From the IMG/VR virus record IMGVR_UViG_3300032333_000153, positions 1 to 56,726 of that record: a DNA stretch of 56,726 nucleotides. The stretch is one strand, 5' to 3'. Source of the DNA: a virus (lineage: Duplodnaviria > Caudoviricetes). Shown in pieces: positions 1 through 56,726 of this stretch. The position numbers and the translations under genes were made by a program. Positions within the stretch are counted from its first letter, which is position 1. Every line of letters starts with the position of its first letter. The notes below the pieces were generated by a model. The model was given only the letters and a program-made list of their open reading frames with translations. It ran no database searches and had not been told where the DNA came from.

Positions 1-2
1 CC

Positions 3-1817
3 CCGATCTCGGCCAACCAGTATTCCATTCAAGCGCGCGACGTTCTGGGCAATCCAGCGTATGCAACCACAACAGATACCCCCGGCGCGGTCCCATCGTT
101 CGAGTTCACCAATGGGTCGGCCGTTGTCAGGATTACGCTTAATAACCACGGTTTGCAGGTGGGCGATACGTTCCCTGTCCTGATTCCTGTCGTTGCTGGC
201 GGCGTAACTGTCGAAGGCAACTATCTGGTTCAGTCGCTGGATAGTGGATCTCCAACCAGCATCTTCACCATTCAGGCCGCCAACTCAGCGACAAGAGCAC
301 CAACTCTAACTGCTTCTGGTACTGGCTCAGTTGCCACCCTGACATTTGCGACATCGCCGTCCTACACAATCCCTGTCGGCAGCACGATTGTCGTGGCCGG
401 CGTGACGCCCGGCGGCTACAACGGCACCTACACGGTAACAGCATCGTCTCCGGGCCGCGTTTCGTATGCCAATGCAACAACCGGCTCAATGAGCGGTGCC
501 GGCACCATCTTCGTGAGCGTTGTTAAAGAGAACAACAACCTCGCCGGGCTCGTCTACTACAATGGCACAGGCCCTCTAGCGGTCAATTCTGGGTACGGCG
601 TCGGCGGCTACGGCACGGGTGGCTACGGCTCCGGCGTTCCGCCTGTTGCCGGCGGCGGCACAGCAATCACCAACACCATGGACTGGTCGCTCGACAACTG
701 GGGCGAGACGCTGATTGCATCTCCTCTGGATGGGCCGATTTACGAGTGGTCCCCGTCTGCCAACAACCCAACTGCAACGATCATCCCCGAAGCCCCTCAG
801 ATCAATGAGGGCGTCTTCGTGGCGATGCCGCAGCAGCAGATCATCGCCTACGGCAGCACGTTCAACGGCGTGAAGGATGCGCTCCTTATTCGCTGGTGCG
901 ATGTAGCCAACTACAATTCGTGGGTCGGACTCGTCACCAATCAGGCGGGCAGCTACCGGATACCCAAGGGCTCCCGCATCATTCAAGGCATTCAGGGGCC
1001 GCAGCAGGGTCTCATCTGGACGGACCTTGCCATCTGGGCGATGCAGTACGTCGGACCGCCCTATGTCTACCAGTTCAACGAACTCGGCACCGGCTGCGGC
1101 CTGATCGGGCGCAAAGCTGCCGCGTCGGTCAACGGCGTGGTCTATTGGATGGGTCAGAGCCAGTTCTTCCGACTCGCTGGCGGCGGCGTTGAGCCCATCC
1201 GCTGCCCGGTTTGGGACGTGATTTTCCAAGACTTGGACACCAACAACCTCGATAAGATCCGCGTTGCGCCCAATTCGCGCTTTGGCGAGATTTCATGGTT
1301 CTACCCGACCCAGTCGAACGGCGGCGAGGTCAGCCACTACGTCAAGTACAACTTCCTCCTTGACCAGTGGGACTTCGGAACGCTCGCCCGGACTGCTTGG
1401 ATCAACGAGAGCGTTCTCGGTCCTCCGATTGGCGCTGCGCCCGACCAGTACATCTATCAGCACGAGACATCGACGGACGCAGACGGTCAGGCCATCAACG
1501 CGAGCTTCCAGACGGGCTACTTTGTCCTGACGGAAGCAAACGTGAAGATGTTCATCGATCAAATCTGGCCGGACATGAAGTGGGGATACTACGATGGAAC
1601 GCAGAACGCGCAGGTCCAACTGACGTTCTTCGTGGCCGACTACGCCGGTCAGACGCCCCTCCAGTACGGGCCGTTCCTCATGACGCAGGCGACCACGTTC
1701 TTGACGCCCCGTTTCCGTGGCCGCCTCGTTTCGATTAAAGTCGAAAGCAACGACATCGGGTCGTTCTGGCGTCTCGGAAATATCAGGTATCGCTTCCAAG
1801 AGGATGGAAAATACTAA
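3..1817 (+). CDS. Tail nozzle / tail tubular protein B-like (gp10-like stabilisation protein), C-terminal part; the N-terminal part is at 56076-56726
   Basis: Frame is open from nt 3 (PISANQYSIQ...). Beta-propeller-like content (WSLDNWGE, IRWCD, VYWMG, EISWFYP) ending FWRLGNIRYRFQEDG is typical of podophage nozzle proteins. Confidence 0.75.
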   Translation, partial: PISANQYSIQARDVLGNPAYATTTDTPGAVPSFEFTNGSAVVRITLNNHGLQVGDTFPVLIPVVAGGVTVEGNYLVQSLDSGSPTSIFTIQAANSATRAPTLTASGTGSVATLTFATSPSYTIPVGSTIVVAGVTPGGYNGTYTVTASSPGRVSYANATTGSMSGAGTIFVSVVKENNNLAGLVYYNGTGPLAVNSGYGVGGYGTGGYGSGVPPVAGGGTAITNTMDWSLDNWGETLIASPLDGPIYEWSPSANNPTATIIPEAPQINEGVFVAMPQQQIIAYGSTFNGVKDALLIRWCDVANYNSWVGLVTNQAGSYRIPKGSRIIQGIQGPQQGLIWTDLAIWAMQYVGPPYVYQFNELGTGCGLIGRKAAASVNGVVYWMGQSQFFRLAGGGVEPIRCPVWDVIFQDLDTNNLDKIRVAPNSRFGEISWFYPTQSNGGEVSHYVKYNFLLDQWDFGTLARTAWINESVLGPPIGAAPDQYIYQHETSTDADGQAINASFQTGYFVLTEANVKMFIDQIWPDMKWGYYDGTQNAQVQLTFFVADYAGQTPLQYGPFLMTQATTFLTPRFRGRLVSIKVESNDIGSFWRLGNIRYRFQEDGKY

Positions 1818-2170
1818 TGGCGTCGCTTGGGGACATCCTCACTACCCAGAAGAATGGCGTCGTCGCCATCAACAACATATTTCAGGCGCTTTCCGCACTG
1901 AACCCGACAACCACCTCGGCAACCGTCACGTCGTCCACCCTCGTCATCACCGGCAGCGGTCGGTTGATTTCGTTCTCGGTCGTCGTTGCCGGCAGTGCGA
2001 ATGGGTTGATTCACAACACAGGCACGCCCTCCGGGGGCACGGCTGCAAACGCTCTCGTCGCGACGCCCACCACTGTCGGCGTTTACGCTGCAAACATGGT
2101 CTTCACCAACGGCTTGGTCATCGCTCCGGGCACGGGGCAGTCAATCAACGTCACATATTCGCAGGGGTAA
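1817..2170 (+). CDS. Small beta-rich virion structural protein
   Basis: 117 aa, T/S/G-rich; TAATG overlap with the nozzle gene. Confidence 0.6.
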   Translation: MASLGDILTTQKNGVVAINNIFQALSALNPTTTSATVTSSTLVITGSGRLISFSVVVAGSANGLIHNTGTPSGGTAANALVATPTTVGVYAANMVFTNGLVIAPGTGQSINVTYSQG

Positions 2171-2173
2171 GAG

Positions 2174-2734
2174 ATGCCGCTCAAGAAGGGTTCATCTCAG
2201 AAGACGGTCAGCTCCAACATTTCAGAGCTGGTTCACTCTGGTCGCCCCCAGAAGCAGGCGATAGCCATCGCCCTAAAAACTGCGCGGGAGGCTCGCGCCA
2301 TGGGCGGCATGCCTCCCCCGAAGCCGCAGACACCAACTGCCTCAAAGCTGCACGTCGGGCCGATTCATTCTCCAGTTGCCGGGCGCACGGACCATCTTCC
2401 CATGCATGTCCCGTCTGGCTCGTATGTGATCCCCGCAGACATCGTTTCCGCGCTGGGCGAAGGAAACACGATGGCGGGGTTTCGGACTGTCAAGACGATG
2501 TTTCAGGGTGCGTCTGCCGGGCAGCGTTCTCTTGGCGGATTTGCGGGAAGCTCTGGGGAGCCAGTTGCTATTGTGGCGGCTGGCGGCGAGTACGTTTTGA
2601 CGCCGGACGAAGTTGCGTGGGCTGGCGGCGGCGACATGGACGCCGGCCACAAGGCGCTGGATCAGTGGGTAAAGCAGACGCGAGCTGAAACCATTAGCAC
2701 GCTCAAGAAGCTACCGGGGCCTCGCCGTGACTGA
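2174..2734 (+). CDS. Putative internal virion protein: basic N-terminus plus two copies of a xxxGG...G(S/E)YV(I/L) module resembling the C-terminal domain of tape measure proteins
   Basis: RAMGG...GPIHSPVAGRTDHLPMHVPSGSYVIPADIVS and RSLGG...VAIVAAGGEYVLTPDEV. Confidence 0.55.
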   Translation: MPLKKGSSQKTVSSNISELVHSGRPQKQAIAIALKTAREARAMGGMPPPKPQTPTASKLHVGPIHSPVAGRTDHLPMHVPSGSYVIPADIVSALGEGNTMAGFRTVKTMFQGASAGQRSLGGFAGSSGEPVAIVAAGGEYVLTPDEVAWAGGGDMDAGHKALDQWVKQTRAETISTLKKLPGPRRD

Positions 2735-2753
2735 GGCAAGTAAGGGGAAAACT

Positions 2754-3245: not shown

Positions 3246-3259
3246 GCAGAGGGGCTAAT

Positions 3260-6200
3260 ATGAGCGGCGGCGGAAAAACCCAAACAGCTACCCAGCAGAT
3301 CCAAGTCCCGCCCGAGGTAATGGCGCGTTACACCGCCGTTAACAAACGAGCGGAAGAAGCCGCCGCCCAGCCCTTTCAGGCTTACAGTCAAGACCCGAAC
3401 GCCTTCGTCGCTCCGTTGACGGCGACGCAGCGAGCGGGCATTCAGAACATCAATCAGGCGGCTGGGATGACCCAGCCGTACTTCCAGACCGCCGCCGGGC
3501 TTACGCTTGGTGGCGCTCAGGGTGTCGGGCCGCTGACGCAGCAGCAGATCGGCTATTACCAGAATCCGTTCACGCAGTCGGTCGTCGGCTCCACGCTGGC
3601 GGGCCTTCAGCAGCAGCAGGGGCAGCAGCTCGCCCAGCAGCAGGCAGAGGCGATCAAGGCCGGAGCGTTTGGCGGCGACCGGGCAGGCATCCAGCGCGCC
3701 CAGCTTCAAGGCCAGCAGAACCTTGCCACGGCGCAGGCGATCTCGCCGCTGATGATGCAGGGTTACCAGCAGGGCGTTCAGACGGCGATGGGCCAGCAGA
3801 ACGTCCTTGCGCAGGATCTCCAGCGCCAGTTGGCGGCTGGGCAACAGCTTGGCGGCCTTGGCGCTCAGTCGCAGCAGGCGGCATTGGCTGGCGCGCAGGC
3901 TCAGCTTGGTGCGGGCACTGCTGAGCAGCAGACGGAGCAGGCCGGCAAGCAGGCTCTCTACAACCAGTTCCTTCAGGAGCGTGGGTATCCGTTCCAAGTC
4001 GCGCAGTTCCTTGCGAACATCGCGATGGGTACGGGGGCGCTGTCAGGGTCAACGACAACCACAACACAGCCCGCTCCTTTCATGTCAGACGAGCGCGAAA
4101 AAACCAATATTCAGCCGCTTGGTGGCGGCCTGTACGCCTACGACTACAAGGACGACGTGCGTCGCGCCGAGGAAGAAGGGCGGCCCATGCCGCCCAAGCG
4201 CGTCGGCCCCATGGCTCAGGATATTGAGAAGCAGGATCCTGACCTCGTCAGCGAAGTGAATGGCCACAAAGTGGTTGGTCGCCCCCAGAAGGCGCTTGGA
4301 GGATTCGCTGGCAAGGGTGGCGTTCAGGCTCCGTCCTACGCTCCTCCGCCCAACGCCGTGCAAAACGTGCCGAGGGCATATCAAAACATGCAAGCCACCC
4401 AGAGCAATGCTGGCAAGGGTGGTGTTCAGGCTCCATCCTACGCCCCTCCGCCCGACGCTGCCCAAAACGCGGCGAGGGTGTATCAAAACATGCAGACGCT
4501 TCAGAGCGCCGGAACAGGCGGTCAGTTGCCGCAGGGGGGCCAAAGCACTGGCCAGCAGGCAGTAGACTCCAACGCGCCAACGCAGAGCCAACTGATGGCC
4601 GGTCAGGGCCAAATGTTGCAGAGCCAAGGCGCACTTACTCCTGCTCAGATGGCGGCCATTCCGGGCAATTCCGGTATATTTACGCAGCCTTTTGGTCCGA
4701 TGGGTGGCCCGTCTATTGGTGGCAAGGGGTCCGTTCAGTCGAACTCTTTCCCGTCTCAGTCTGCCTCTTACGGTCAGATGTCTCCATCAATGCCGCCCAT
4801 GGCTCCCAGCTATGGCGGAATGCAGCGTGGCTTTGGAAAGGGTGGAGTGCGGGCTCCCTCTTATGCCTCTGGTGGGGCAGTCGTAGGCTCCGAGGACATG
4901 CGCGCCATTCTGGCCGCCATCGGTCAGCCGCTTGCGTTCTACGGCGGCAAGGGCCTTTACGGCGGATCTGGGACTGGCGGGGCTGGCGCTCCCGGCTACA
5001 TCCCGCAGTCGCAGGTTGCACAGCCGAAGCTGGTCACGGCTGGCGGCTTGCCTGCACAGCGCCCGTCTGGTCTCAGCGAGGCTCTTGATACGGGAACAAA
5101 GATCGCGGGCCTTGCCCAAACGGGCAAGGGCGCACTGGTTGGGTCAGAAGGTTCTGGCGGCAAGAAGGGCAGCACTGGCCTGTTTGGCAGTGAGGGATCC
5201 TTCAATCGGAAGGGGTACATTTCTGGCCTTGGCGGTGCAGAAGCTGGCCCCTCTCGCGCAGCCCCTCCGGCCCCGAAGGGGGCTGACAAGATCGCCGAAA
5301 CGATGCCGCCGGCTGAGTGGGATACAAACAGGCTCTTCGGCTATCGCGGCGGCCTGATGCGAAATGATTACGCCATGGGCGGTGGCTTGCCTTACGCCAC
5401 CGGCGACATGGGCGAAGACCCGTTGCAGAAGATCGGCGAGCCTGACGAGCAGAAGCGCGAGCTGATGACGCCGGGCAAGCTCGGTGCGCCGGCTCCGGGT
5501 GTCGGTAACGAGCTTTTGGACGCCGGATCGAAGATCGCCTCCATCGCCAAGGTGGCGATGATGTTTGCGCCGTCCGACGCCCGCATGAAGGACAACATTG
5601 AGCAAGTCGGCGAGCTTTACGACGGCCAGCCGGTCTATCGCTACAACATGAAGGGCTCGCCCAAGACCCAGATCGGCCTCATGGCGCAGGATCTGGAACG
5701 CAATGGTCATGGCGACGCGGTTGCTGGCCTCGGCGGCATCAAGATGGTCGATTACAAGCGCGCCACTGACGTGGCGGCGGGTCTCGCGCCCCGGCAGGGC
5801 TATCAAGAGGGCGGCACGCCCAGATCTGAAGATGAGGAGCGTATCTTGCGGGCACGGGAGGCGGGAAGATCACCGCCGCCGGGTGTCGCGAGCGGTGAGC
5901 GCCCTGTTGGCGGAGTGGTGCCTCCCGAACAAATTCCTTCTCGCTCGCCTTATGCAACCCTAATCGGTGGCATGTTCGGTCGCGACATGAAGCCTGAAAC
6001 AAAGCAGGCCCTCATGTCCGAAAACCTCTGGGTTCCGGCGCTCGCCGGCATCGGATCAATGCTGGCGTCAAGGTCTCCGTATCTGGCCAGCGCTATTGGC
6101 GAAGGGCTCGTTGGCGGCACGAGCGCGTACACTGGCCTTCAGAAGCAGCAGTCCGAGGCCGATGAGGCCAGCGCCCGGACGGGGCTCACGAACGTGCAGG

Positions 6201-7450
6201 CGGCTGGAGCGTCCATCAAGTACGACGCAAGGGGCTTCCCGCAGGCTGTGCTTGTCTCTGATGGGCGTGGCGGTATGCGCTACGTTCCCTTCTACGAAGT
6301 GCTGGAGAACCCTGACAGGTACAATCTCCTGCCGCAAACCCGGCGCGAAGTCGAACAGGCCGCACGCACGGCGAGCCCGCGCAGTGAAGCGCCTCCTGCC
6401 GCTGTCAGCAGGCAACCTGTGCCCGCGAGAACGACGGCAGACACCCTTCCTCCCGCGCCTCCGCCATCCGGTGTACAGCCGGCGCGGGAGCCTCCCGCAA
6501 CCGCAGGGGCCGCTCCGCAGGCCGCTCCGCCTGCCGCTGCTGCGCCTGCGGCTACTCCGCCTGCCGCCACTGGCCCAGTCACGCGGGTCGGCGCAATCGA
6601 GATCCCGAAGGAGGGCGAGTACCGCATCGACGTGGCCCCGGCTCGCGGCGGCATTGCGGACGAGTACATCCGCAGCGTGTTGCCTCCGGGTGTCAACATT
6701 AACAATCCGCGCGCCATTGAGGCAGCGATCAACACGGTGCCGAACCTGCGTGAGCGGGCGGAAAAAGAAGCGGCTACTGCTCAGTCTATTCGTGACGCGT
6801 CTCGCGCGACGGATCGTAGTATTTCCGATTTGTGGTCTCTGGCCACGTCGGTTAACCGCATCAGCACTAACAACCTTACCGGAGAAGGCGCTGGGCAGGA
6901 GGGTCGTGCGGCTCTGGTGAACATCTACAATACGGCGGCCAAAATTGCGGGGCTCCCCGGCGCGCAGATTGATGTCGGCTCGGACATTCAGGAAACTGAA
7001 ATCATCCGCAAGATCCAAGAGCTTGGGTCTGTGCAAATGGCCGCGCAGGGCGGATTTAATGCTGCGGCTGTTGCTACTTCAATCCGCAACGCGATGCCCA
7101 GCGGCAATCTCACGAAGGAGGCGGCGAACACCATCATCTCCAACATGTTGGTGGAGTTCCAGCGGGATCGCGACTTCGCTCGCTACTACGACGCCTACAC
7201 GCGCCGCTATGGCACTGCACTGAACGTCTACGACAACTTCAACAAAGAGATGGGCGACCGTTACGACCTTGAGCGGCAAAGGCTTAAGGAGTCGATGCAG
7301 GCCTTCCCGATCACTGAGCGCGTCAACGGACAGACTGTGACGCGGCGCGAAAGTGCTGTCGATATTCTTCGCAGAGACCCATCATCGTCGCGTCGATTTG
7401 ATGCGCGATTTGATACACCCGGACTGGCGCGCTACTGGAGGACCAACTGA
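3260..7450 (+). CDS. Large internal virion / DNA-ejection protein with two internal peptidase S74 (intramolecular chaperone autoprocessing) domains
   Basis: Q/A/G-rich pilot-like N-terminus (MSGGGKTQTATQ; AGAFGGDR); SDEREKTNI...GPMAQDIEK at aa 276 and SDARMKDNI...GLMAQDLE...VDY at aa 772. Confidence 0.75.
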   Translation: MSGGGKTQTATQQIQVPPEVMARYTAVNKRAEEAAAQPFQAYSQDPNAFVAPLTATQRAGIQNINQAAGMTQPYFQTAAGLTLGGAQGVGPLTQQQIGYYQNPFTQSVVGSTLAGLQQQQGQQLAQQQAEAIKAGAFGGDRAGIQRAQLQGQQNLATAQAISPLMMQGYQQGVQTAMGQQNVLAQDLQRQLAAGQQLGGLGAQSQQAALAGAQAQLGAGTAEQQTEQAGKQALYNQFLQERGYPFQVAQFLANIAMGTGALSGSTTTTTQPAPFMSDEREKTNIQPLGGGLYAYDYKDDVRRAEEEGRPMPPKRVGPMAQDIEKQDPDLVSEVNGHKVVGRPQKALGGFAGKGGVQAPSYAPPPNAVQNVPRAYQNMQATQSNAGKGGVQAPSYAPPPDAAQNAARVYQNMQTLQSAGTGGQLPQGGQSTGQQAVDSNAPTQSQLMAGQGQMLQSQGALTPAQMAAIPGNSGIFTQPFGPMGGPSIGGKGSVQSNSFPSQSASYGQMSPSMPPMAPSYGGMQRGFGKGGVRAPSYASGGAVVGSEDMRAILAAIGQPLAFYGGKGLYGGSGTGGAGAPGYIPQSQVAQPKLVTAGGLPAQRPSGLSEALDTGTKIAGLAQTGKGALVGSEGSGGKKGSTGLFGSEGSFNRKGYISGLGGAEAGPSRAAPPAPKGADKIAETMPPAEWDTNRLFGYRGGLMRNDYAMGGGLPYATGDMGEDPLQKIGEPDEQKRELMTPGKLGAPAPGVGNELLDAGSKIASIAKVAMMFAPSDARMKDNIEQVGELYDGQPVYRYNMKGSPKTQIGLMAQDLERNGHGDAVAGLGGIKMVDYKRATDVAAGLAPRQGYQEGGTPRSEDEERILRAREAGRSPPPGVASGERPVGGVVPPEQIPSRSPYATLIGGMFGRDMKPETKQALMSENLWVPALAGIGSMLASRSPYLASAIGEGLVGGTSAYTGLQKQQSEADEASARTGLTNVQAAGASIKYDARGFPQAVLVSDGRGGMRYVPFYEVLENPDRYNLLPQTRREVEQAARTASPRSEAPPAAVSRQPVPARTTADTLPPAPPPSGVQPAREPPATAGAAPQAAPPAAAAPAATPPAATGPVTRVGAIEIPKEGEYRIDVAPARGGIADEYIRSVLPPGVNINNPRAIEAAINTVPNLRERAEKEAATAQSIRDASRATDRSISDLWSLATSVNRISTNNLTGEGAGQEGRAALVNIYNTAAKIAGLPGAQIDVGSDIQETEIIRKIQELGSVQMAAQGGFNAAAVATSIRNAMPSGNLTKEAANTIISNMLVEFQRDRDFARYYDAYTRRYGTALNVYDNFNKEMGDRYDLERQRLKESMQAFPITERVNGQTVTRRESAVDILRRDPSSSRRFDARFDTPGLARYWRTN
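4307..4510 (+). repeat. 102-bp (34-aa) tandem duplication inside the ejection protein gene
   Basis: AGKGGVQAPSYAPPP..AQN..R.YQNMQ..QS repeated from 4307 and 4409; a degenerate third copy GKGGVRAPSY lies near 4835. Confidence 0.9.
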
Positions 7451-10116
7451 TGAACGAGCAAGATCCGTTCGGTCACCTCCCTCCGATCAGCGCGCCAGCC
7501 ACGACCACCCGACCCGGCGAAGATCCTTTCGAGCGGCTCCGTCAGGCAGAGTTCGTCGAGCGGAGACGCAGCCAAGAAATGCCGAAGACGCCGCAGACCT
7601 TCGGCGAGCATGCCGCCGACATCCTTGGTGCTGGCGCGGCTGGCGTGGGGCGCGGTATCGTGTCGCTGCCGGGCATCGTCGGCGACATCGGTCAGCTTTA
7701 CGAGCGCTCCCCTGCCTACGCCGCATGGGTTCAAAATCGCGTTCAGGAGCTGCGCGGCAAGGCGCAGCCCGGATCCGCCCGAAAGGCATATGAGGAACGC
7801 CTCGCTCCGATTGAGGAGCGCATGACGCCGGGCGAGCGCGCAGGAACCGAATACAGAATTGCCGGAGTTCCCGTCCCCACCGGGCAGTCCATGGTGAACT
7901 TGGCCGCCGGAGCGGTTCCGAGCATCAAGTACGAAGGCAAGACACCGACATCGCGCGTCGTCGGCACCGTTGGTGAGTTCGTCGGGCAGGTTCCCGCTAC
8001 GTCCGCTGTGTCGATGGGTGTGCGTGGCGCACTGGGTGCGCCCAAGGCCGCTGGAGCGGGTCAGGCAGCGGTGCGTGAGCTTGCGACCACCACGGGGGCT
8101 GGGGTGACCAGCGGGGCCGCCGGCGAGGCTCTGAGGGGCACTGACGATGAGGCCGCTGCGCGCGTGCTCGGCGTGGTGCCGGGCATGCTGGCGGGCCGCG
8201 CCATAGCTGGCCGCACGCCTGCCGCCACGGCGGAGCGCAGCGAGCGCATCGCTGGCGACATCGTTCGCGAGACCGATCCCGACATCACTCGCCGCCAGCC
8301 GATGCTCGACAAGACGCTGGAGGGCGTGGAGCCTACGTCGGCACAGGCTTACGGCTCGCGCATGGAGGCGCTGGAACGCGCCGTGCCGGGCGGCCAACAG
8401 GCTGCACGCACGCAGGCCGACCAGAGCCGCATGATCGTCGAGCGCGCTGCCGCTGCAATCCCGGAGGAGATCCAGCCGGGCGGCGTCAAGGACACGACCG
8501 TCAACCCGATGTCGATGTCATCGGCGGAGGCGCAGAACCTCTACCGAGCCATCCAAGAGCCAGCCCGCGTGGCCTATGAGGCCGCGTGGGATCACCCTGC
8601 TTTTACGCAAGCGCGCTACAATTCCAGCGCCGTGGGCCGGGCGATTGATGATGCGTTCAAGGAAATGGGCACCGCGCGGCTGAGCGTTGGCAACGACGTG
8701 ATGCAACAGATTGAGGCCCTTCGGAACTACTCTGGCGGCCAGATCCCGTTCGCAGACGTTCAGCGGCTCAAGGCGGATGTGAACGCCGTCCTGCGCGATC
8801 CGACGGCCAAACCCTCGGCGGTTACGGCTGCAAAGGCTATTTCGACCAAGCTCGACGACATGATGACCGACACGAAAGCCGTGTCGAACATCTTTATGAA
8901 GGGCGTCACGCCCTCTGAGGTTGGTGCGGCGTTTGACAATGCGCGCACAATGACGCGCGAGTACAAGAGCACGTTTGAGACGCCAGCCACGAAGCCCCTT
9001 TCAGAGGTTCATAGCCGGTATCATTCCGAGGCCGGTCGCCCGGTCATTGAGCCTGAGCTGTTCCTGTCCAAGGTGCTCGGATCGCCCGACGAGGCACTGT
9101 CGCGTTACCGCGAGATCCAGAACATTCCGGGCGTCGATGTGGCTCGCCCTGTCGGTGATTGGGTCGTGTCGAAAATCCTTGGCGGAAAGGCGTTTATCAC
9201 GCCGGAGATGATCGCAAACTTCCGCAAGAACCCCGGCTACGACGGCCTGATCCGCGAGGTTCCCGGCCTTGAGGCGCGCTTGGATCAGATCGCCAACACG
9301 GGGCTCGGCAACCAGATCGTCATGTCCCTGTCGGACGCCATACAGCGTGATCCGGCAAAACTGTCGAGCTGGATCAAAAATAACCGGGCAGACATCAATA
9401 AATTCGTGACCGACCCGGATGGCCGCGCCTTCATCGACCGCGTCAATCAGTCGGCCAACATCCTGAAGAAGTTGCCCGTGAATGAGGAGCTTCCGCAGGG
9501 TGCTCAGCAGCGACTGAAACTGCTGTCGAGCGGTGATATGTTCACGCTACTGCACGGGCGCGCCATCGGTTCATTTGCGGGGGCTGCGGCGGGCTACGGC
9601 GCAGGCAAGGCGCTCGGAATGACTATTCCTGCCCAGATTGCCTTTGAGGCTCTAGGAGCCGCCGCAGGCGCTACCGCATCACAGGTTATGAGCCCCGTGA
9701 CCCGGTTTGCTGCGCGCATGGTGTACGGCACCACGCAGGAGCAAGCTATGGCGGCCCTCCAGCGCGCTGTTACTGATCCTCAGTTCGCACGCTTCTTGGC
9801 GCAGAAGCCTTCCGAGGCAAACACGCTTCGTCTCAACGCCTTCCTGCGCGAGATGAGCGCACGCGCCCCGGCGCTCGGCATGGCGGCGGAGCGTCTTCCT
9901 GACGAGCCCGCGCCGCCGCCCAAGACGACTGAGGAGATGTATCGCGAACTCACCATCCCGCTTCAGCGTCGGGGTCGTGCGACAGGCGGTGCGGTGAACC
10001 TTCGCGAACTCGCCAAGACGGCGAAAAATCATGTAACATCCAGCACTGAGAAGCTCCTTAACGAGCACGACGACACCGTCGCCAAGGCGCTTGAAGTTGC
10101 CAACAAGCACATCTGA
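7450..10116 (+). CDS. Internal virion / ejection protein
   Basis: 888 aa, Ala/Gly-rich hydrophobic helices, C-terminal RATGG and TVAKALEVANK; coupled to the previous gene. Confidence 0.6.
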   Translation: MNEQDPFGHLPPISAPATTTRPGEDPFERLRQAEFVERRRSQEMPKTPQTFGEHAADILGAGAAGVGRGIVSLPGIVGDIGQLYERSPAYAAWVQNRVQELRGKAQPGSARKAYEERLAPIEERMTPGERAGTEYRIAGVPVPTGQSMVNLAAGAVPSIKYEGKTPTSRVVGTVGEFVGQVPATSAVSMGVRGALGAPKAAGAGQAAVRELATTTGAGVTSGAAGEALRGTDDEAAARVLGVVPGMLAGRAIAGRTPAATAERSERIAGDIVRETDPDITRRQPMLDKTLEGVEPTSAQAYGSRMEALERAVPGGQQAARTQADQSRMIVERAAAAIPEEIQPGGVKDTTVNPMSMSSAEAQNLYRAIQEPARVAYEAAWDHPAFTQARYNSSAVGRAIDDAFKEMGTARLSVGNDVMQQIEALRNYSGGQIPFADVQRLKADVNAVLRDPTAKPSAVTAAKAISTKLDDMMTDTKAVSNIFMKGVTPSEVGAAFDNARTMTREYKSTFETPATKPLSEVHSRYHSEAGRPVIEPELFLSKVLGSPDEALSRYREIQNIPGVDVARPVGDWVVSKILGGKAFITPEMIANFRKNPGYDGLIREVPGLEARLDQIANTGLGNQIVMSLSDAIQRDPAKLSSWIKNNRADINKFVTDPDGRAFIDRVNQSANILKKLPVNEELPQGAQQRLKLLSSGDMFTLLHGRAIGSFAGAAAGYGAGKALGMTIPAQIAFEALGAAAGATASQVMSPVTRFAARMVYGTTQEQAMAALQRAVTDPQFARFLAQKPSEANTLRLNAFLREMSARAPALGMAAERLPDEPAPPPKTTEEMYRELTIPLQRRGRATGGAVNLRELAKTAKNHVTSSTEKLLNEHDDTVAKALEVANKHI

Positions 10117-38742: not shown

Positions 38743-40107
38743 ATGTCTGACATGGCAAAGAAGGCCCGCGAGGCAATGAAGGGCAAGGCCCGAAAGCTCG
38801 CCGCTGAGAAGGATCAGAAGGTCGATAGCTCTGACTGGTCGCCCGCCGAGCCGCTGAACGCGGAAGTGAAGACGGGCATGCGCCCGATCTCGCGCCGGGC
38901 GTACAAGTCTGGCGGCAAGGTCGAGGGCGCGAGCGCCCCGAAGAACCTTGGTCGCACCCAGCGTAAGGCTGGCGGCAAGGCCGAAGAGAAGTCCGAGGCG
39001 GCAGAGTACGCCAAGGCGAAGATCAACCGCGACGCCAAGGCGGCCAATCAGGAGCGCGAGGGCATCAAGCACATTGGTGGCCTGAAGTCTGGCGGGCGGG
39101 CCAAGAAGCAGAACGGCGGCGAAAACAGCGCCCCGGCCTCCGGCATTCGTGGCCGCATTCGCGACATGCTGAAGAAGGTCCACCCCGGCGATGCGGCGGT
39201 CCAGCGCGAGCAGCTTCGCGATGTTGGCAGCAGCCAGACCAGCAACATCCCCGCCGAGGATCGGGCTCGCATGGAGCGGATGGCCGGCGAGTCCGGCATG
39301 AAGAAGGGCGGTCGCGCCAAGCGCAAGGATGGCGGCAAGATCGCCACGACCCTCGCCGGGCAGGAGAAGATCCAGAAGGAGCAGGCGGCTGCCTCCAAGC
39401 CGACGCGCGGAAAGGCCCAGCACTACAAGAAGGGCGGTCGCGCTGAGAAGATGGTGGGCGGCCCGATGATGGATCCGCGCATGAGCATGGTGAAGCCGAA
39501 AGCCATGGACTTTGCTGGCGCTCAGGGCACGCCCTACAAGAAGGGTGGCCGCACCAAGAAGCTCGGCGGCGGCGCTCTCATGGGCGGCGTCCTCCCTGCC
39601 ATGGCCATGGGCGAGATGGGCGGCAAGGACAAGGACGAGGGCCGCGAGGCTCGCAAGTCCGGCGGCCGCACGAAGGCCAAGGGCAAGACCAACATCAACA
39701 TCGTCATTGGCGCTGCCAAGCCGGCAATGCCTGACGCCATGGGTGCTGGCGCTCCCCCGATGCCTCCTCCGGGCGTGCCGGTTCCGCTTCCGGGTGGCGC
39801 TCCGGGTGGTGCTCCGCCTCCGATGCCCATGCCGATGCCGATGCCGGCCCCCTCGGCCCCTCCGGGCATGCCCAGCCCGATGGGTCGCAAGACCGGCGGT
39901 CGCACTGTCGCCAAGTCCTACAAGGACATGACGGCGGGCGCTGGGTCTGGCGAGGGCCGCCTCCAGAAGACCGAGATTGCCGAAGGCAAGCGCGAGGCGC
40001 GCAAGGCCGGCGGAAAAGTTTACCGCTCCTACAAGGACATGGATGCGGGCGCAGGATCAGGGCTTGGGCGCTTGGAAAAGACGGAAATCGAAGCGCGTAA
40101 GAACTGA
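38743..40107 (+). CDS. Lys/Gly-rich basic protein with about 13 xxxGG repeats (putative internal head protein)
   Basis: YKSGG, RKAGG, LKSGG, MKKGG, RKDGG, YKKGG x2, RKSGG, RKTGG and others; duplicated SYKDM.AGAGSG.GRL.K tail. Confidence 0.7.
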   Translation: MSDMAKKAREAMKGKARKLAAEKDQKVDSSDWSPAEPLNAEVKTGMRPISRRAYKSGGKVEGASAPKNLGRTQRKAGGKAEEKSEAAEYAKAKINRDAKAANQEREGIKHIGGLKSGGRAKKQNGGENSAPASGIRGRIRDMLKKVHPGDAAVQREQLRDVGSSQTSNIPAEDRARMERMAGESGMKKGGRAKRKDGGKIATTLAGQEKIQKEQAAASKPTRGKAQHYKKGGRAEKMVGGPMMDPRMSMVKPKAMDFAGAQGTPYKKGGRTKKLGGGALMGGVLPAMAMGEMGGKDKDEGREARKSGGRTKAKGKTNINIVIGAAKPAMPDAMGAGAPPMPPPGVPVPLPGGAPGGAPPPMPMPMPMPAPSAPPGMPSPMGRKTGGRTVAKSYKDMTAGAGSGEGRLQKTEIAEGKREARKAGGKVYRSYKDMDAGAGSGLGRLEKTEIEARKN

Positions 40108-40802: not shown

Positions 40803-41690
40803 ATGTCCAACAACGACGAAAAGCTCGAAGTTGAGATTGAAGACAGCGTCCCCGAGGTCGAAAAGACCGAAAAAGAGGTCGAAGTCGAGGCAAAACAGGA
40901 ACTTGAGCCCGATGATGGGATCAAAGACCTCAAAATGCGCCTCGAACAGGAGCGAATGGCCCGTGCGGAGGCCGAAAAGCAGGCTCAGGCGGCCCGTGAG
41001 CAGGCTTATTACGCCAGCAACGAGGTGCATGACACCAATTTGCAGCTCGTAAAGAACGCTATCGAAACTGTGAAGGGCAATAACGAGGTTCTGAAGCGCG
41101 CTTATAGCGAGGCGCTGTCTGTTGGCGACTACAGCAAAACCGCCGAGATCCAAGAGGCGCTTTCGCTCAATGCTGCGCGCCTCATGGAGCTGGAGAGGGG
41201 CCGCTCGGCCATGGAGCAGGCTCCCAAGCCGCAGCGTCCAGAGCCGGTCAACCCCGTCGAGGCGCTGGCAAACCAGCTTTCGCCTCGTTCGGCTGATTGG
41301 ATCCGCAAGAACCCTCAGTGCGTCACCGATCAGCGCATGTACCAGAAGATGGTGGCGGCTCACAATCTGGCCCTCGCGGACGGAATGCAGCCGGACACCG
41401 ACGACTACTTCGGCTTCATCGAAGATACGCTGAAGATCAATCGTCGTGCGCCCGCTGCCAAGCAGGAGGTCGAGGCCGATGACGACGCCTCGTCGTCTGC
41501 CGCCAAGGTGGTTCAGCGCCGCTCGGCTCCGCCGGCTGCGCCCGTCACTCGGGCAGGCAACGCCAGCGGCCAGCGCCCCGGAACGGTGCGCCTGACCCGC
41601 ATGGAGGCGGAGACGGCCCGCGATCTCGGCATGACTGAAGAAGAATACGCCCGCAACAAGATGCTGCTTCAGAAGGAAGGGCGTCTCTAA
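40803..41690 (+). CDS. Capsid scaffolding-like protein
   Basis: Acidic N-terminus, coiled coil, C-terminal VRLT..E...ARDLGMTEEEYAR. Confidence 0.7.
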   Translation: MSNNDEKLEVEIEDSVPEVEKTEKEVEVEAKQELEPDDGIKDLKMRLEQERMARAEAEKQAQAAREQAYYASNEVHDTNLQLVKNAIETVKGNNEVLKRAYSEALSVGDYSKTAEIQEALSLNAARLMELERGRSAMEQAPKPQRPEPVNPVEALANQLSPRSADWIRKNPQCVTDQRMYQKMVAAHNLALADGMQPDTDDYFGFIEDTLKINRRAPAAKQEVEADDDASSSAAKVVQRRSAPPAAPVTRAGNASGQRPGTVRLTRMEAETARDLGMTEEEYARNKMLLQKEGRL

Positions 41691-43061: not shown

Positions 43062-43967
43062 ATGGCTGTCAATCTTTCGGCTATTAAAGACCTTCTCCTC
43101 CCCGGCCTCCGTGGAATTGAAGGCAAGTACGAGCAGATCCCGTCGCAGTACGACAAGATCTTCACGAAGCACAACTCGAAGATGGCTCTGGAGCGCACCG
43201 CTGAGATGCGTTTCCTCGGCTACGCTCAGTTGAAGACGGAAGGCGGTCAGACGGCGTTCGATAACAACGCCGGCGAGCGCTACGTCTACAACCAAGAGCA
43301 CGTCGAGATCGGCCTTGGCTACGCGATCACTCGCAAGGCCATCGACGACAACCTCTACAAGAGCCAGTTTGCTCCGTCGAACCTCGGCCTGATCGAGTCT
43401 TTCGCTCAGACCAAGGAAATCTACGGCGCGAACGTGCTGAACACCGCGACGAGCTATAATGCGTCGGTCGGCGGTGACGGCGTCGCTCTTGTGTCGGGTT
43501 CTCACCCGATTGATGGCGGCACGATTTCCAACTACGCCACCAACGATCTTAACGAAGCCACGCTGCTGAATGGCATGATCGCCATCCGCACGAACTTCAG
43601 AGATCAGGCTGGCCTGAAGGTCTTCGCGCGTGGTCGTCGTCTGATCGTCCCGCCGCAGCTCGAGCCGGTTGCGATCCGTCTGACGAAGACGGAACTGCGT
43701 CCCGGCACTGCCGACAACGATGTGAACGCTATCATGATGACTTCGGGCGGCCTGCCCGAGGGCTACATGGTCAACGATTACCTCACGTCGGCTCGTGCGT
43801 GGTTCCTGCTGACCAACATCGACGGCCTCTCCTACATGGAGCGCGTCGGCTTCGAGACCGATATGCAGGTCGATTTCGTAACAGACAACCTTCTCGTGAA
43901 GGGTTACGAGCGTTACAGCTTCGGTTACTACAACTGGCGTTCGATCTGGGGCTCGCTCCCGACCTGA
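43062..43967 (+). CDS. Major capsid protein (HK97 fold)
   Basis: LLPGL, K.EG....D, LGYAIT, LIVPPQL, YLTS..AWFL, ERYSFG..WR; strong codon bias. Confidence 0.9.
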   Translation: MAVNLSAIKDLLLPGLRGIEGKYEQIPSQYDKIFTKHNSKMALERTAEMRFLGYAQLKTEGGQTAFDNNAGERYVYNQEHVEIGLGYAITRKAIDDNLYKSQFAPSNLGLIESFAQTKEIYGANVLNTATSYNASVGGDGVALVSGSHPIDGGTISNYATNDLNEATLLNGMIAIRTNFRDQAGLKVFARGRRLIVPPQLEPVAIRLTKTELRPGTADNDVNAIMMTSGGLPEGYMVNDYLTSARAWFLLTNIDGLSYMERVGFETDMQVDFVTDNLLVKGYERYSFGYYNWRSIWGSLPT

Positions 43968-44541: not shown

Positions 44542-44778
44542 ATGGGTGCTTACAAAGGCAAGGCTTCCACGATCAAGGAAGCTGAAGAGAAGACCAACGG
44601 CTTCAAGAAGGGCGGCATGGCCGCCAAGAAGATGGCCGGCGGCTACGCGAAGGGCGGCTCGTCCAAGAAGGTCATGTCCTCTGCTGAGAGCTGCGAGCGT
44701 CCCGCCCGCAAGAGTGGTGGCGGCGTGTTCTCCTCGGCGGCGTCCGGCACGCCTCGCGGCAAGGCTTCCCACTACTGA
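44542..44778 (+). CDS. Small basic xxxGG-motif protein
   Basis: FKKGG, KMAGG, YAKGG, RKSGG. Confidence 0.65.
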   Translation: MGAYKGKASTIKEAEEKTNGFKKGGMAAKKMAGGYAKGGSSKKVMSSAESCERPARKSGGGVFSSAASGTPRGKASHY

Positions 44779-44849
44779 GCGTTTTCTCCCTTTCCGTTCA
44801 GTCGTGGGAGCGGGGGCCTTTGAGCCCCCGCACTTGCATGGAGGGTACG

Positions 44850-50551: not shown

Positions 50552-50560
50552 GAGGAGACC

Positions 50561-53215: not shown

Positions 53216-53223
53216 GGATAGCA

Positions 53224-55318: not shown

Positions 55319-55358
55319 CCAAAATCGTGTAAAGTCTAGCAAAATCGGCGGGCTCACC

Positions 55359-56072
55359 ATGACGACAGGCTTAACCTACACAACATACAAGTCGCAGATC
55401 GCGACGATGGCGGTCGTCGAAGAGTCAGATCCCAACTTTCTGACGATCCTGCCCATGATGATTGATTACGCCGAGTTGCGGATGTACCGCGACTTGGACT
55501 TCCTGTTCACCTCCACCACGAACAGCACGCAGACCTGCGTCGTCGGTAGCCGGCAGATCTCCGTTCCGGTGGGCACGTTCGTCGTCACCGACCAGATCAA
55601 CGTGATCTCTCCCGCCGGCACATCTGATCCCAACGCTGGCACCAGAAACCCGCTCCTGCCGACGACGAAGGAGTTTCTTGATGCGGTTTATGGGACACCG
55701 AGCGCGCCCGGACTGCCCAAGTTCTACTGCGCCTTCAACGACAACGTGTTCCTGATTGGACCGTTCCCGGATCAGGCGTACCGCGTCGAGATTACAGGCA
55801 CCTTCAGGCCGGCGTCGCTGTCGATCAGCAACCCGACGACGTTCATCAGCGAGTATCTGCCGGATCTCTTCGTGATGGCGTCGATGGTCTACATCTCGGC
55901 GTACCAGCGCAACTTCGGGCGCGCAAACGATGACCCTCAGATGGCCATCACTTATGAGAGCCAGTATCAGGCACTGCTGAAGGGCGCTGCTGTCGAAGAG
56001 GCGAGGAAGAAGTACGAGGCGTCTGCGTGGTCTTCGCAGTCCCCGTCGCCTGTCGCCACCCCGACGAGGTGA
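55359..56072 (+). CDS. Tail adaptor / tubular protein A-like
   Basis: I.YAE.R.YRDL, G.P.F, GP.PD.AY.VE, T.IS...PDL, YE.QY. Confidence 0.7.
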   Translation: MTTGLTYTTYKSQIATMAVVEESDPNFLTILPMMIDYAELRMYRDLDFLFTSTTNSTQTCVVGSRQISVPVGTFVVTDQINVISPAGTSDPNAGTRNPLLPTTKEFLDAVYGTPSAPGLPKFYCAFNDNVFLIGPFPDQAYRVEITGTFRPASLSISNPTTFISEYLPDLFVMASMVYISAYQRNFGRANDDPQMAITYESQYQALLKGAAVEEARKKYEASAWSSQSPSPVATPTR

Positions 56073-56075
56073 TGC

Positions 56076-56726
56076 ATGCCCCATAATTCGCTCAAGCTCA
56101 TCCCCGGCGTTGACCAGAACAAGACCCCGGCCCTCAACGAGGCCGCGATCTCAACGACCAGCTTTGTCCGGTTCATCTCCGACCGCACGCTCGGCGGGCT
56201 GGTTCAGAAGCTCGGCGGCTGGACGAAGTTTTTTCCGAACCAGATTGGTTCGACCATTCGAGCCCTGTGGGCGTGGCAGGACATCAACTCCAATTCATGG
56301 CTTGCTGTTGGGGCAAATCAGTCCCTGTCGGCCATCGTTGACAATGGCGCTAAGACGATCACGCCTCAAACGACAGATGCCTCCACTTCAATCAGCGTGA
56401 CAGGCGCGTCGTGGTCTGACGGCGTCGCGACGCTGACCTTCTCGACTTCGTTTCCGTTTCAGCCGGGTACGACCGTTGTCGTTAGTGGCGTCGATCCCAG
56501 CCTAACTCCTCCCGCTCAGGGGTATAACGGAACACATGTCCTGACTGCTGGCGGCTCTGGGAGCATATCCTACGCCATAGCGTCAGACCCCGGCACGTAT
56601 GTGAGCGGCGGAACGATTGTCAGCGCGCAGGGCGTCCCTGTGTCGTTCAGTACGACGGCGGGCAGCTCTATTGTACTTGTCGATGACATCGGCAGCGCAC
56701 TGGACGCCTTTGATGTCGTTGATATC
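56076..56726 (+). CDS. Tail nozzle protein, N-terminal part (runs off the window end)
   Basis: MPHNSLKLIPGV...VRF...QKLGGW...RAL.AW; 217 codons open to the last base. Confidence 0.75.
   Translation, partial: MPHNSLKLIPGVDQNKTPALNEAAISTTSFVRFISDRTLGGLVQKLGGWTKFFPNQIGSTIRALWAWQDINSNSWLAVGANQSLSAIVDNGAKTITPQTTDASTSISVTGASWSDGVATLTFSTSFPFQPGTTVVVSGVDPSLTPPAQGYNGTHVLTAGGSGSISYAIASDPGTYVSGGTIVSAQGVPVSFSTTAGSSIVLVDDIGSALDAFDVVDI

Follow-up and report, generated by a model that had tools for sequence, protein, structure and literature searches.

A helix insulated by Gly-Gly hinges at the ends and joints of putative injected proteins of an uncultured short-tailed phage

Genes and motif-bearing proteins

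The DNA analysed here (the window, 56,726 nucleotides or 56.7 kb) is the whole record of an uncultured short-tailed phage, a podophage with an SU10-type portal. The phage collection contains only one relative of it, itself a metagenomic record. The initial annotation proposed that six proteins, named here by their gene starts, share a peptide motif ending in Gly-Gly, and ORFs are present at all six starts (2174, 3260, 7450, 35573, 38743 and 44542). Gene position and family names suggest that the six proteins are head-internal, and they are the phage's most likely candidates for packaging in the head and injection. These genes, their motifs and three context genes are as follows.

2174..2734, + strand: g2174, 186 aa, ejection-gene module (3443 homologues; phrog_2423 matches residues 1-42)
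2249..2308, + strand: g2174 unit 1, helix QKQAIAIALKTAREA then RAMGG (residues 41-45), from homologue alignment
2525..2539, + strand: g2174 unit 2, RSLGG, from homologue alignment
3260..7450, + strand: g3260, 1396 aa, ejection-type protein (phrog_4287, 'DNA ejection protein')
4085-4249 and 5573-5698, + strand: g3260 Peptidase_S74 domains (Pfam, 28.6 and 27.1 bits, cut-off 22)
4289-4303, + strand: g3260 KALGG
4832-4846, + strand: g3260 FGKGG, motif match
4862-4876, + strand: g3260 YASGG, motif match
5369-5383, + strand: g3260 YAMGG, motif match
5801-5815, + strand: g3260 YQEGG
7450..10116, + strand: g7450, 888 aa; by position, the final large protein of the ejection module; body unconserved
9976..10113, + strand: g7450 C-terminal handle, RATGG, AVNLRELAKTAK, TEKLLNEHDDTVAKALEVANKHI, stop, from the relatives' alignment
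33306..35567, + strand: portal protein (context; Pfam SU10_portal and phrog_1216)
35573..38698, + strand: g35573, 1041 aa, directly after the portal gene; polyvalent-protein class via relatives
36182..36196, + strand: g35573 REDGG (residues 204-208), junction past the N-terminal module, at a homology edge
36575..36661, + strand: g35573 double unit, RAEGG, RLLEDQYPTQYLPNVGRQVM, ADGG (residues 335-363), with conserved copies elsewhere
38612..38695, + strand: g35573 C-terminal handle, FKDGG, NVANHAINLAREINSSPREETVP, stop, from a 26-sequence comparison
38743..40107, + strand: g38743, 454 aa, basic and rich in Gly, 15 motif copies
40803..41690, + strand: scaffold-like protein, acidic and helical (context; position, composition, homologues)
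43062..43967, + strand: major capsid protein (context; phrog_371)
44542..44778, + strand: g44542, 78 aa, very small and basic; two genes past the major capsid gene

The g3260 counterpart in a relative is annotated 'internal virion protein D', and g2174 occupies the position of T7 gp14, a likeness of gene order only. The scaffold-like gene lies between a GroES-like gene and the capsid gene and has 29 homologous ORFs in related loci; its product is a putative scaffold.

Abundance and conservation of the motif

Every motif listed in the initial annotation is present, but its pattern, [RKYFML]xxGG, has 38 matches in the six proteins, against about 29 counted initially (g2174 2, g3260 9, g7450 2, g35573 5, g38743 15, g44542 5). 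The predicted enrichment over composition-matched sequence is found: shuffling within each protein, which controls for Gly content, gives 14.7 expected (p<=2e-4; 5000 shuffles, as in all pooled tests), and the stricter [RKYF][AK]xGG occurs 19 times against 2.0 expected. The other 56 proteins hold 26 copies against 27.6 expected (p=0.65), or 3 against 2.5 by the strict pattern. Taken singly, only g38743 (15 vs 3.4) and g44542 (5 vs 0.7) are significant (2000 shuffles per protein), g7450 alone giving 2 vs 1.8. The four weaker proteins pooled (g2174, g3260, g7450, g35573) show 18 vs 10.7 (p=0.022), and 7 vs 1.1 by the strict pattern (p<=2e-4). Because the six were picked for carrying the motif, p-values on them are post hoc; independent support comes from conservation in relatives, and it is this that upholds the four weaker proteins. 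The motif is real, but uneven across the six. Its reported absence elsewhere agrees with the lack of excess in the major capsid protein (2 vs 0.9), the scaffold and the replication proteins in per-protein shuffles, but the portal carries one RKAGG (residues 63-67) and a GG count of 9 against 3.8 expected.

Conservation in homologues was anticipated too, and relatives of g2174, g3260, g7450 and g38743 keep their sites. The layout of g2174 is an N-terminal tag, a GG hinge with a Pro-rich linker, and a duplicated strand-helix-helix domain. The AF2 model places helices at residues 9-21 and 26-42, the second immediately before the GG at 44-45, and has low confidence from residue 44 on, into the linker. 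At site 1, GG is found in 120 of 120 homologues, with R/K at -3 in 111 and A at -2 in 103. Site 2 is xxxGG in 117 of 120, of which 97 have Y/F at -3 and 110 A at -2; its form in relatives, [YF]AxGG-x-V-G-E-P-V-x-I-V-A-A-G-G-E-Y-V, resembles FATGG...EPAGIVHRGEFV of lambda gpH at the motif level only. The first ~40 residues of g2174 also stand at the head of DUF2213 head-maturation proteases of other phages.

In g38743, which has at least 3438 homologues, the motif follows the consensus [RK]-K-x-G-G-[RK]-[AVT] (logo of 30 homologues); its excess recurs in 30 of 30 homologues examined, and each of 120 further homologues (120/120) has 8-21 copies. The small g44542 carries FKKGG, KMAGG, YAKGG and RKSGG, and a homologue occupies the equivalent position in a related locus (L013). 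The composition of g38743, with 15% Gly and Lys+Arg near 20% (range 15-20% across 30 homologues), its 15 regularly built motifs and the lack of any family or fold match in family-profile searches would suit a sticker-and-spacer condensate, in which aromatic or basic stickers separated by Gly-Gly spacers cause the cargo, g38743 and g44542 to co-condense, mutually or with DNA, into an internal body packed and expelled as one unit. Position -3 is R/K or Y/F throughout, as such stickers would be. The reasoning is purely compositional, however, and leaves the conserved Ala at -2, the helices and the terminal positions unexplained; we consider a condensate very improbable.

The conserved unit and module boundaries

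The xxxGG motif is the mere edge of a conserved unit. What selection maintains is a short amphipathic helix with GG hinges that insulate it from its surroundings. The helix has about ten residues, approximately x-[VI]-x-x-A-L-R/x-L/I-A-R/S (about xVxxALRLAR), and the hinge after it is [RKYF]-[A/K/D]-x-G-G. The unit occupies N-terminal caps, C-terminal ends and module joints of post-portal polyvalent and ejection proteins in three arrangements: Met-helix-GG opens many cargo proteins, GG-helix-stop closes them and GG-helix-GG separates their modules. Among 86 post-portal ORFs of related loci, counted with close relatives left out, there are 26 distinct N-terminal caps, in which GG ends at residue 20-30, as well as 32 C-terminal handles, with the last motif 12-45 residues ahead of the stop; GG-helix-GG units occur inside giant relatives. 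Against random windows drawn from these proteins, caps and handles show a raised helical hydrophobic moment and a lower Gly+Pro content (Mann-Whitney p 3e-10 and 2e-5). The consensus for the helix is a loose one, and within the window the strict helix-plus-GG pattern fits g2174 only. Profiles built from the caps and handles of relatives score below 6 bits on window proteins, no better than the best shuffled matches, even though the top ranks fall within the six proteins.

The motif had been placed at the boundaries of freely swapped cargo modules, and homology among the shuffled relatives does break at GG-helix units. The 452-aa C-terminal module of g35573 is joined to other domains in 20 other proteins, its partners being PBECR5, LPD23, ART-PolyVal, InPase, Hydrolase_2, Amidase_2, Phage_lysozyme2 and PcfJ, and the same domain families occur in post-portal proteins of relatives. 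In these 20 proteins homology starts at residues 334-365 in nine, at 200 in one (P0276) and at 567-572 in five; the REDGG near the start at 200 is identical in two relatives (L001 and L021). In six of six longer homologues the common module stops 0-16 residues past the C-terminal GG and a different module follows, the InPase domain of P0279 beginning 4 residues later. Of the two glycines of this motif, G1018 is the same in all of 26 sequences and G1017 in nearly all. A relative of g2174 (L097) has an extra module of more than 100 residues between its GG units, with more GG units at the downstream end of that module.

Motifs just before C-termini are likewise found, namely RATGG at 843-847 of 888 residues in g7450, FKDGG at 1014-1018 of 1041 in g35573 and RKAGG at 420-424 of 454 in g38743. 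So are those after each S74 domain of g3260, where KALGG (344-348) follows residues 276-330 and YQEGG (848-852) follows 772-813; an aromatic-x-x-GG after S74 domains recurs in seven of seven g3260 relatives examined. A motif following an MTase domain was not borne out, since the domain has a sub-threshold NCBIfam match only (E 0.011; 14.5 bits, with the cut-off at 150) and none in Pfam.

These units could be passive linkers, helix stops with flexible hinges that need no partner and no cutting and allow modules to fold, pack and unfold singly at ejection, their sequence likeness reflecting common descent of linkers along with modules. The GG that follows a predicted helix and opens a low-confidence segment in g2174 fits such linkers, as does the loose helix consensus, and in N4 vRNAP, an ejected giant protein, flexible linkers are described as joining the globular units (PMC13434306). 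However, the constraint at -3 and -2 of the two g2174 sites is far tighter than a hinge needs. Moreover, a 24-residue unit of g35573 is kept at 16-23 of 24 identical residues in seven further proteins whose remaining sequence is unrelated or differently assembled, although in the distant copies third positions of conserved codons match only 6/19 to 14/20; the core of the double unit occurs in nine ORFs in nine loci. Judged by these codons, selection acts on the peptide and not on the DNA. In the g7450 position of four distant relatives only residues 839-888, motif included, are shared, with 82, 51, 44 and 44% identity across ~50 residues of high helical hydrophobic moment (0.67) on otherwise unrelated bodies, and a protein end needs no hinge. 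Passive linkage is rather unlikely.

Docking and cutting

We favour an uncut hinge plus docking handle by which cargo would be loaded as beads on a string, at a probability of about 0.45. The helices would anchor modules of injected proteins at sites that recur within the procapsid or on the portal, and the portal and the scaffold-like protein are candidate docking partners. Each module, free to move at its GG hinges, would fold and pack independently and then pass singly through the tail, and the same ends on every module would permit swapping without loss of loading. With their many copies of the hinge half, the basic proteins g38743 and g44542 probably occupy or arrange the internal compartment that holds the cargo. 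A docking handle is supported by the confinement of the enrichment to the six proteins, by the anatomy of caps, handles and internal units, by the homology breaks at these units and by selection at the protein level.

No published description of a GG-hinged helix tag was found in the literature, and precedents come from related arrangements. T4 and P1 DarB provide known cases of N-terminal capsid-targeting signals 10-30 residues long, and the DUF2213 head-maturation proteases that share the g2174 tag must enter proheads. In N4, gp51 has a helical hairpin docked by the portal wing, and vRNAP is depicted as a string of beads (PMC13434306). In crAss001 gp45, cryo-EM resolves two docked pieces, a helix (214-245) that sits on the tail barrel and a domain (425-552) that sits on the portal (PMC10172136). 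The helix is bracketed by SAYGG (205-209) and FAEGG (259-263) and the domain by NAFGG (423-427) and FAYGG (558-562), which is a precedent for docking, yet fits equally fragments freed by cutting.

Such cutting would make [RKYF]xxGG a maturation cleavage code, recognised by a phage or host protease at head maturation or after injection, with modules freed as separate proteins and helices discarded as targeting peptides, as with the T4 capsid-targeting sequence. The sites match module boundaries exactly and also occur 12-45 residues from protein ends; small residues at both P2 and P1 are typical of the sites that viral proteases process, as with adenovirus protease, ASFV pS273R and coronavirus PLpro. 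Another type of proteolysis already exists in g3260, with its two self-cleaving S74 domains, and cleavage would account for the gp45 parts on both sides of the crAss001 portal. The FATGG (732-736) and YATGG (777-781) named in the initial annotation as preceding the C-terminal segment of lambda gpH are indeed there, and gpH is cleaved within its Gly-rich C-terminal region (PMC12617516). That source states that the cleavage site and catalyst are unknown, and therefore it gives no precedent for cutting at the motif.

The uncut reading is supported because the only peptidase family in the genome scans is the self-cleaving S74, HExxH was not found and Pro often follows GG. As noted initially, no canonical prohead protease gene was recognised, and apart from S74 no protease family was matched in the 58 proteins scanned with Pfam and PHROGs or the 11 scanned with NCBIfam. 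The protein g41694 of the head module lacks any invariant Cys or Ser. At g2174 site 1 the residue after GG is Pro in 61 of 120 homologues, which disfavours a GG-specific endopeptidase there, and crAss001 has SAYGG-P as well. Residues after GG are otherwise unconstrained in 30 g38743 homologues, and cutting g38743 at its 15 sites would yield peptides down to 3-10 residues. The main text of the crAss001 paper contains no word beginning with 'cleav' or 'proteoly' (PMC10172136). Cleavage at the motif is rather unlikely.

The terminal caps, at 20-45 residues, closely resemble removable targeting peptides, for which an unrecognised or host protease is possible.

Motif copies and the layout of the genome

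The virus record is complete at 56,726 bases, with a G+C content of ~60% and no tRNA genes, and family scans of 58 ORFs identify it as a short-tailed phage. Its main features are given here, with genes named by their start coordinate.

Main features of the genome
Small and large terminase, by family scans
33306-35567, SU10-type portal, by family scans
Directly after the portal: g35573 (1041 aa), then g38743 (454 aa)
40403-40795, GroES-like co-chaperonin, adjoining the scaffold gene
Scaffold-like protein, acidic and helical
43062-43967, major capsid protein, 301 residues
Two SU10-adaptor-like proteins, a collagen-like fibre, an amidase and a leftward replication module
Ejection block: g1817, g2174 (186 aa), an acetyltransferase-like gene, g3260 (1396 aa; phrog 'DNA ejection protein') and g7450 (888 aa)

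The ejection block lies downstream of a split nozzle-like gene and is ordered like the internal-core genes of T7, a likeness of gene order only. The nozzle-like virion protein (phrog_3287) is divided over the two ends of the record (56076-56726 and 3-1817); when the ends are joined directly, the halves do not share a reading frame and a stop follows after 277 codons. The record has no terminal repeat, and one or two bases may be missing at the junction. The acetyltransferase-like gene (2727-3245, 172 residues), between g2174 and g3260, keeps its position in 7 of 7 relatives examined and is called 'putative acetyltransferase' in the relative MW202675.1; it has no Pfam match in the window. A GapR-like DNA-binding protein is encoded at 28386-28667 (E 1.6e-29), presumably a hint of an alphaproteobacterial host.

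The initial annotation had listed copies of the motif [RKYFML]xxGG in six proteins (g2174, g3260, g7450, g35573, g38743 and g44542), and every one of them was found in the sequence. Compared with shuffles of each protein's own residues, which control for glycine content, the six pooled carry 38 copies where 14.7 are expected, and 19 copies of the stricter [RKYF][AK]xGG where 2.0 are expected; in the remaining 56 proteins the counts are 26 against 27.6 and, for the strict pattern, 3 against 2.5. The enrichment over composition-matched shuffles therefore holds for the pool, but singly only g38743 (15 against 3.4) and g44542 (5 against 0.7) reach significance, with g7450 at 2 against 1.8. An artefact of a Gly-rich, GC-rich genome is ruled out by the lack of excess under within-protein shuffles in the other 56 proteins, which include the collagen-like fibre and one 34%-Gly protein. 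The initial annotation had not seen the motif in the portal, but the portal does carry one RKAGG (residues 63-67, 33492-33506) in its poorly conserved N-terminal region. Its C-terminal tail contains AAVRLAQDIAK, which resembles the helix described below, and both likenesses may be due to chance. Just past the tiny basic g44542, an 85-residue ORF (44838-45095) matches Pfam DUF6321 (E 2.7e-15).

Because the six proteins were picked for carrying the motif, greater weight is given to their relatives. The phage collection holds one related record only, a metagenomic genome; IMG/VR contains at least 598 related portal loci, and homologues of two tagged proteins number at least 3443 and at least 3438. 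The motif is conserved in the relatives of g2174, g38743 and g3260. All 30 g38743 homologues taken from the related loci show a 3- to 6-fold excess and give the logo [RK]-K-x-G-G-[RK]-[AVT], and 120 further homologues carry 8-21 motifs per protein. The first site of g2174 (RAMGG, residues 41-45) keeps its GG in 120 of 120 homologues and takes the form [RK]-A-x-G-G in most, with R/K in 111 and A in 103. Its second site, RSLGG in the window, is present in 117 of 120, mostly as [YF]-A-x-G-G, and the relatives of g3260 retain aromatic-x-x-GG downstream of their S74 domains.

A helix between Gly-Gly hinges

In the giant post-portal proteins of relatives, the five residues turn out to border a larger unit, in which a short amphipathic helix is flanked by Gly-Gly hinges (...ERDGG-AVEGALHIAR-GMYADGG... 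and ...FNKGG-IVRKALEAIR... are examples). The terminal versions were surveyed in 86 post-portal ORFs from related loci, some of them truncated at contig ends and a small number possibly in wrong frames. With close relatives excluded, there are 26 distinct N-caps, each made of Met, 3-8 residues, a helix like A-L-R-L-A-R, 3-10 residues and [RKYF]-[AD]-x-G-G, with the GG ending at residue 20-30. There are 32 C-handles, counted in the same way, in which the last motif stands 12-45 residues before the stop and leads into a helix, for example VHKALEIIHHL, DRALRLT or RALMLTSRK. Relative to random windows of the same proteins, caps and handles have a higher helical hydrophobic moment and less Gly+Pro (p 3e-10 and 2e-5).

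The window counterpart of the N-cap is the N-terminus of g2174, where the AF2 model (mean pLDDT 66.7) has a helix at 26-42, the GG at 44-45 and then a low-confidence linker. A double unit, RAEGG-RLLEDQYPTQYLPNVGRQVM-ADGG, occupies residues 335-363 of g35573, and the C-tails of g35573 and g7450 read FKDGG-NVANHAINLAREI... and RATGG-AVNLRELAKTAK...VAKALEVANKHI. Profiles of the N-cap and C-handle score at best 4.8 and 5.4 bits on the window proteome against 5.9 and 7.5 for the best shuffled sequences, too weak to be of use, and it is their ranking alone that points to the six proteins; a strict helix-plus-GG pattern matches only g2174 in the window, and a 52-residue unit has no tblastn match in the phage collection. 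A 24-residue unit is found on unrelated bodies with 16-23 of 24 residues identical and third codon positions drifted; among conserved codons, third positions match at 6/19, 7/16 and 11/20 in the three most diverged copies and at 13/19 and 14/20 in two others. These mismatches rule out linkers spread by DNA-level recombination, and the retention of the residues while third positions drift implies that the peptide is under selection. The helix, rather than the five-residue motif, is the conserved core; this is new here, as is the N-cap and C-handle anatomy. No published description of such a junction unit was found in the literature searched, a body that excludes most subscription journals.

The first ~40 residues of g2174 have 60-70% identity to the N-termini of annotated head-maturation proteases of Acinetobacter phages, with further matches in Burkholderia phage BcepB1A (gp26) and in Pseudomonas phage O4 (a 48-residue ORF). 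In both tag-bearing phage proteins that were scanned (n=2), DUF2213 lies downstream of the tag. Residues 1-40 (2174-2293, MPLKKGSSQKT...QAIAIAL) matched 117 phage records, most of them N-termini of DUF2213 head-maturation proteases from Acinetobacter phages, and BcepB1A gp26 runs from the tag through a NUDIX domain and DUF2213 to a nested scaffold. The tag helix is also matched by the family helix RKQAVAIALSEA of DUF6496 (PF20106), a family of small basic proteins, although the g2174 tag itself scores 14.1 bits (E 0.063) against PF20106, under the cut-off of 24. A precomputed PF20106 match falls between GG motifs in 2 of 120 g38743 homologues. In the g38743 homologues P0373 (residues 285-333) and P0402 (residues 318-366), two [RK]xGG motifs enclose a complete inserted DUF6496-like unit (VMHEFKEGxLHSGSK...SRKQAVAIALSEAGK). 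No paper naming DUF6496 was found in the literature searched. Also new here are the connection with protease N-termini and with DUF6496, and the arguments from codon drift and from proline after the GG.

The earlier placing of the motifs at module boundaries is borne out by the relatives of g35573 and g7450, whose homology breaks coincide with the units. Twenty other proteins contain the C-terminal 452-residue module of g35573, before or behind eight different Pfam domains; the partners, present in 13 of the 20 (precomputed Pfam, six rescanned), are PBECR5, LPD23, ART-PolyVal, InPase, Hydrolase_2, Amidase_2, Phage_lysozyme2 and PcfJ. Homology to g35573 starts within the double unit (residues 334-365) in nine of the 20, at residue 200 (REDGG) in one, at 567-572 in five and elsewhere in five. 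In all six proteins that extend beyond the g35573 module, similarity ends 0-16 residues past ...YGF[AK]xGG, and in the homologous protein P0279 an InPase domain begins 4 residues further on. The proteins at the g7450 position of four distant relatives have only the last ~50 residues in common, and one g2174 relative holds an extra module of >100 residues between GG units, with more GG units at the downstream end of that module.

Among the relatives, post-portal proteins contain LPD23, ART-PolyVal, PBECR5, InPase, Hydrolase_2 and M15 domains, and 8 of 10 relatives scanned have domains of this kind there. These domain sets identify them as polyvalent proteins in the sense of Iyer, Burroughs, Anand, de Souza and Aravind (2017, PMC5512222), described from phages and conjugative elements. 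As set out in the available text, polyvalent proteins are large, portal-adjacent, predicted to be packed and injected, and built of shuffled ART-PolyVal, PBECR, InPase, LPD and cell-wall hydrolase domains, as are the proteins here (PMC5512222). Several unrelated effector-type domains in variable order are found through the relatives of g35573, which itself has no Pfam match, and its location is that of a virion gene beside the portal, 6 bases past the portal end, the same in relatives. The words 'linker', 'glycine' and 'low-complexity' are absent from the main text of that paper in its available form, so that no junction unit appears to be described there (PMC5512222).

Docking or cutting at the Gly-Gly sites

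If the GG sites were cut, a protease would be expected to act on them, and the initial annotation had recognised no canonical prohead protease gene. None was found by Pfam or PHROGs among 58 proteins scanned, or by NCBIfam among 11, unlike in T4, where the prohead protease removes the capsid-targeting signal; the only peptidase-type family that these searches returned in window proteins is the S74 of g3260. The g2174 model (pLDDT 66.7) is predicted to consist of helices and a duplicated strand-helix-helix unit with no protease-like features. Of the candidate hidden proteases, g41694 lacks any invariant Cys or Ser and gave only unnamed viral clusters in Atlas, and g42453 gave only weak leads to cement/decoration proteins (scores 0.82-0.84). 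No Peptidase C39 family member of a double-glycine leader system is among the Pfam matches of the 58 proteins, and, unlike double-glycine leaders, which are N-terminal, the motifs here are also internal and C-terminal. The first site of g2174 has Pro directly after GG in 61 of 120 homologues, a context that disfavours endopeptidases cutting behind Gly-Gly. For polyvalent proteins, zincin-like peptidase domains have been proposed to do the processing, according to the available text (PMC5512222); by contrast, the window's proteins have no zincin-like (HExxH) motif, and Pfam gave no zincin-type peptidase domain in the proteins of 10 relatives.

The two Peptidase_S74 (PF13884) matches of g3260 score 28.6 and 27.1 bits, above the cut-off of 22, and place the protein in that family.

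S74 domains of g3260
4085-4249, residues 276-330
5573-5698, residues 772-813

Both begin at model position 1, on S276 (SDEREK) and S772 (SDARMK), and we take this serine and the Lys five residues on to be catalytic. S74 is the self-cleaving C-terminal intramolecular chaperone of tail spikes; here the domains lie within a presumed internal, ejection-type protein, which self-cleavage would split into three pieces.

A precedent for docking comes from crAss001, whose cargo protein C1 (gp45) has aromatic-x-x-GG at 10 places. By cryo-EM, two of its pieces are docked, one a helix (214-245) lying in the tail barrel, the other a domain (425-552) on the portal, and the motif goes unmentioned in the available text of that paper (Bayfield et al. 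2023, PMC10172136). The docked helix is bracketed by SAYGG and FAEGG and the domain by NAFGG and FAYGG, which shows that GG-bounded pieces can be docking elements; the same bracketing would also fit released fragments and is to that extent compatible with cleavage. The window's proteins have no sequence relationship to gp45, the six have no Pfam match to the crAss cargo family even at E up to 1-10, and the phage differs from the crAss001 lineage in its SU10-type portal and adaptor, 60% G+C and GapR-like gene. In N4, as depicted in the available text, a helical hairpin of gp51 is docked beside the portal wing and the vRNAP is drawn as flexibly linked beads (PMC13434306).

The failure to find a protease, the proline after GG and the docking precedents of crAss001 and N4 together favour the reading that the units are uncut hinges bearing docking helices, to which we assign a probability of roughly 0.45. 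That the units are passive linkers is unlikely, cleavage at the GG sites about equally so, and a grammar for condensates is highly improbable.

Parallels in other phages and a possible loading code

The FATGG and YATGG that the initial annotation named for lambda gpH were found at 732-736 and 777-781. What follows them, EPAGIVHRGEFVF, resembles by eye the second site of the g2174 family, [YF]AxGG-x-V-G-E-P-V-x-I-V-A-A-G-G-E-Y-V; gpH leaves the virion ahead of the DNA, and we infer that g2174 does so too. In BLAST against the single 163-residue sequence of gpH 691-853, g2174 gave E 0.089, a likeness at the level of the motif. Searches for tape-measure Pfam families gave none for the proteins at E up to 10, and the g2174-family profile found nothing below E 0.1 among solved structures. 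In lambda, gpH is cut in a Gly-rich region, and the available text of a 2025 paper leaves the site and the catalyst unknown; residues 818-849 alone are resolved there, bound to gpI, and the motif region at ~690-817 is unresolved (PMC12617516). Were the units cutting sites, they would point to an unrecognised protease activity and would bear on the unsolved gpH cleavage.

Internal proteins of T4 and DarB of P1 have a short terminal capsid-targeting peptide that, in the available text, is common to diverse injected proteins and sufficient to load foreign ones (PMC3012670, PMC9024508). The P1 signal lies inside the first 30 residues (PMC9024508), comparable to the 20-30 residues of the N-caps. 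Unlike these signals, the tag here is also C-terminal, internal and repeated, and residues 1-50 of DarB contain no GG. The internal proteins gp13-gp16 of T7 have no comparable motif load, so the tag is not a general podophage trait. The [RK]KGG after a short helix also resembles the KGG stress-protein repeat, which we take to be PF10685, but neither g38743 nor g44542 has a match to it in Pfam at E up to 10.

To our knowledge, how head proteins are chosen and how giant multi-domain effectors pass through a narrow tail are known for few model phages. It is possible, although we hold it only tentatively, that GG-hinged, DUF6496-related helices serve injected proteins as a portable code for loading and ordering, common to unrelated short-tailed lineages (the SU10-portal group and crAss-like phages), with an echo in the C-terminal [FY]AxGG region of tape measures. 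Under such a code, any module flanked by units would enter the head, stay bound at sites repeated in its interior and leave by threading in a set order, which would explain why injected proteins are shuffled so freely. With a short transferable unit marking every injected module, cargo loading would follow a rule open to test, and the extreme shuffling of domains in polyvalent proteins would be accounted for. The unit could also be used to pack proteins of choice into phage particles in laboratory strains.

Two further genes stand out. The protein of 743 residues at 50984-53215 consists of a methyltransferase-like N-terminus, a DXD sugar-binding glycosyltransferase region, a family-2 glycosyltransferase and a TPR-like end; it matches phrog_13126 'beta-1,4-glycosyltransferase' (E 1e-106), and its match to the TcdA/TcdB-type glycosyltransferase family is below cut-off. 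The HNH/endonuclease VII-like gene (phrog_1035) at 46769-47320 has a third-position G+C of 0.47, far below that of its neighbours; with its placement between tail genes, this makes a homing endonuclease of recent acquisition probable.
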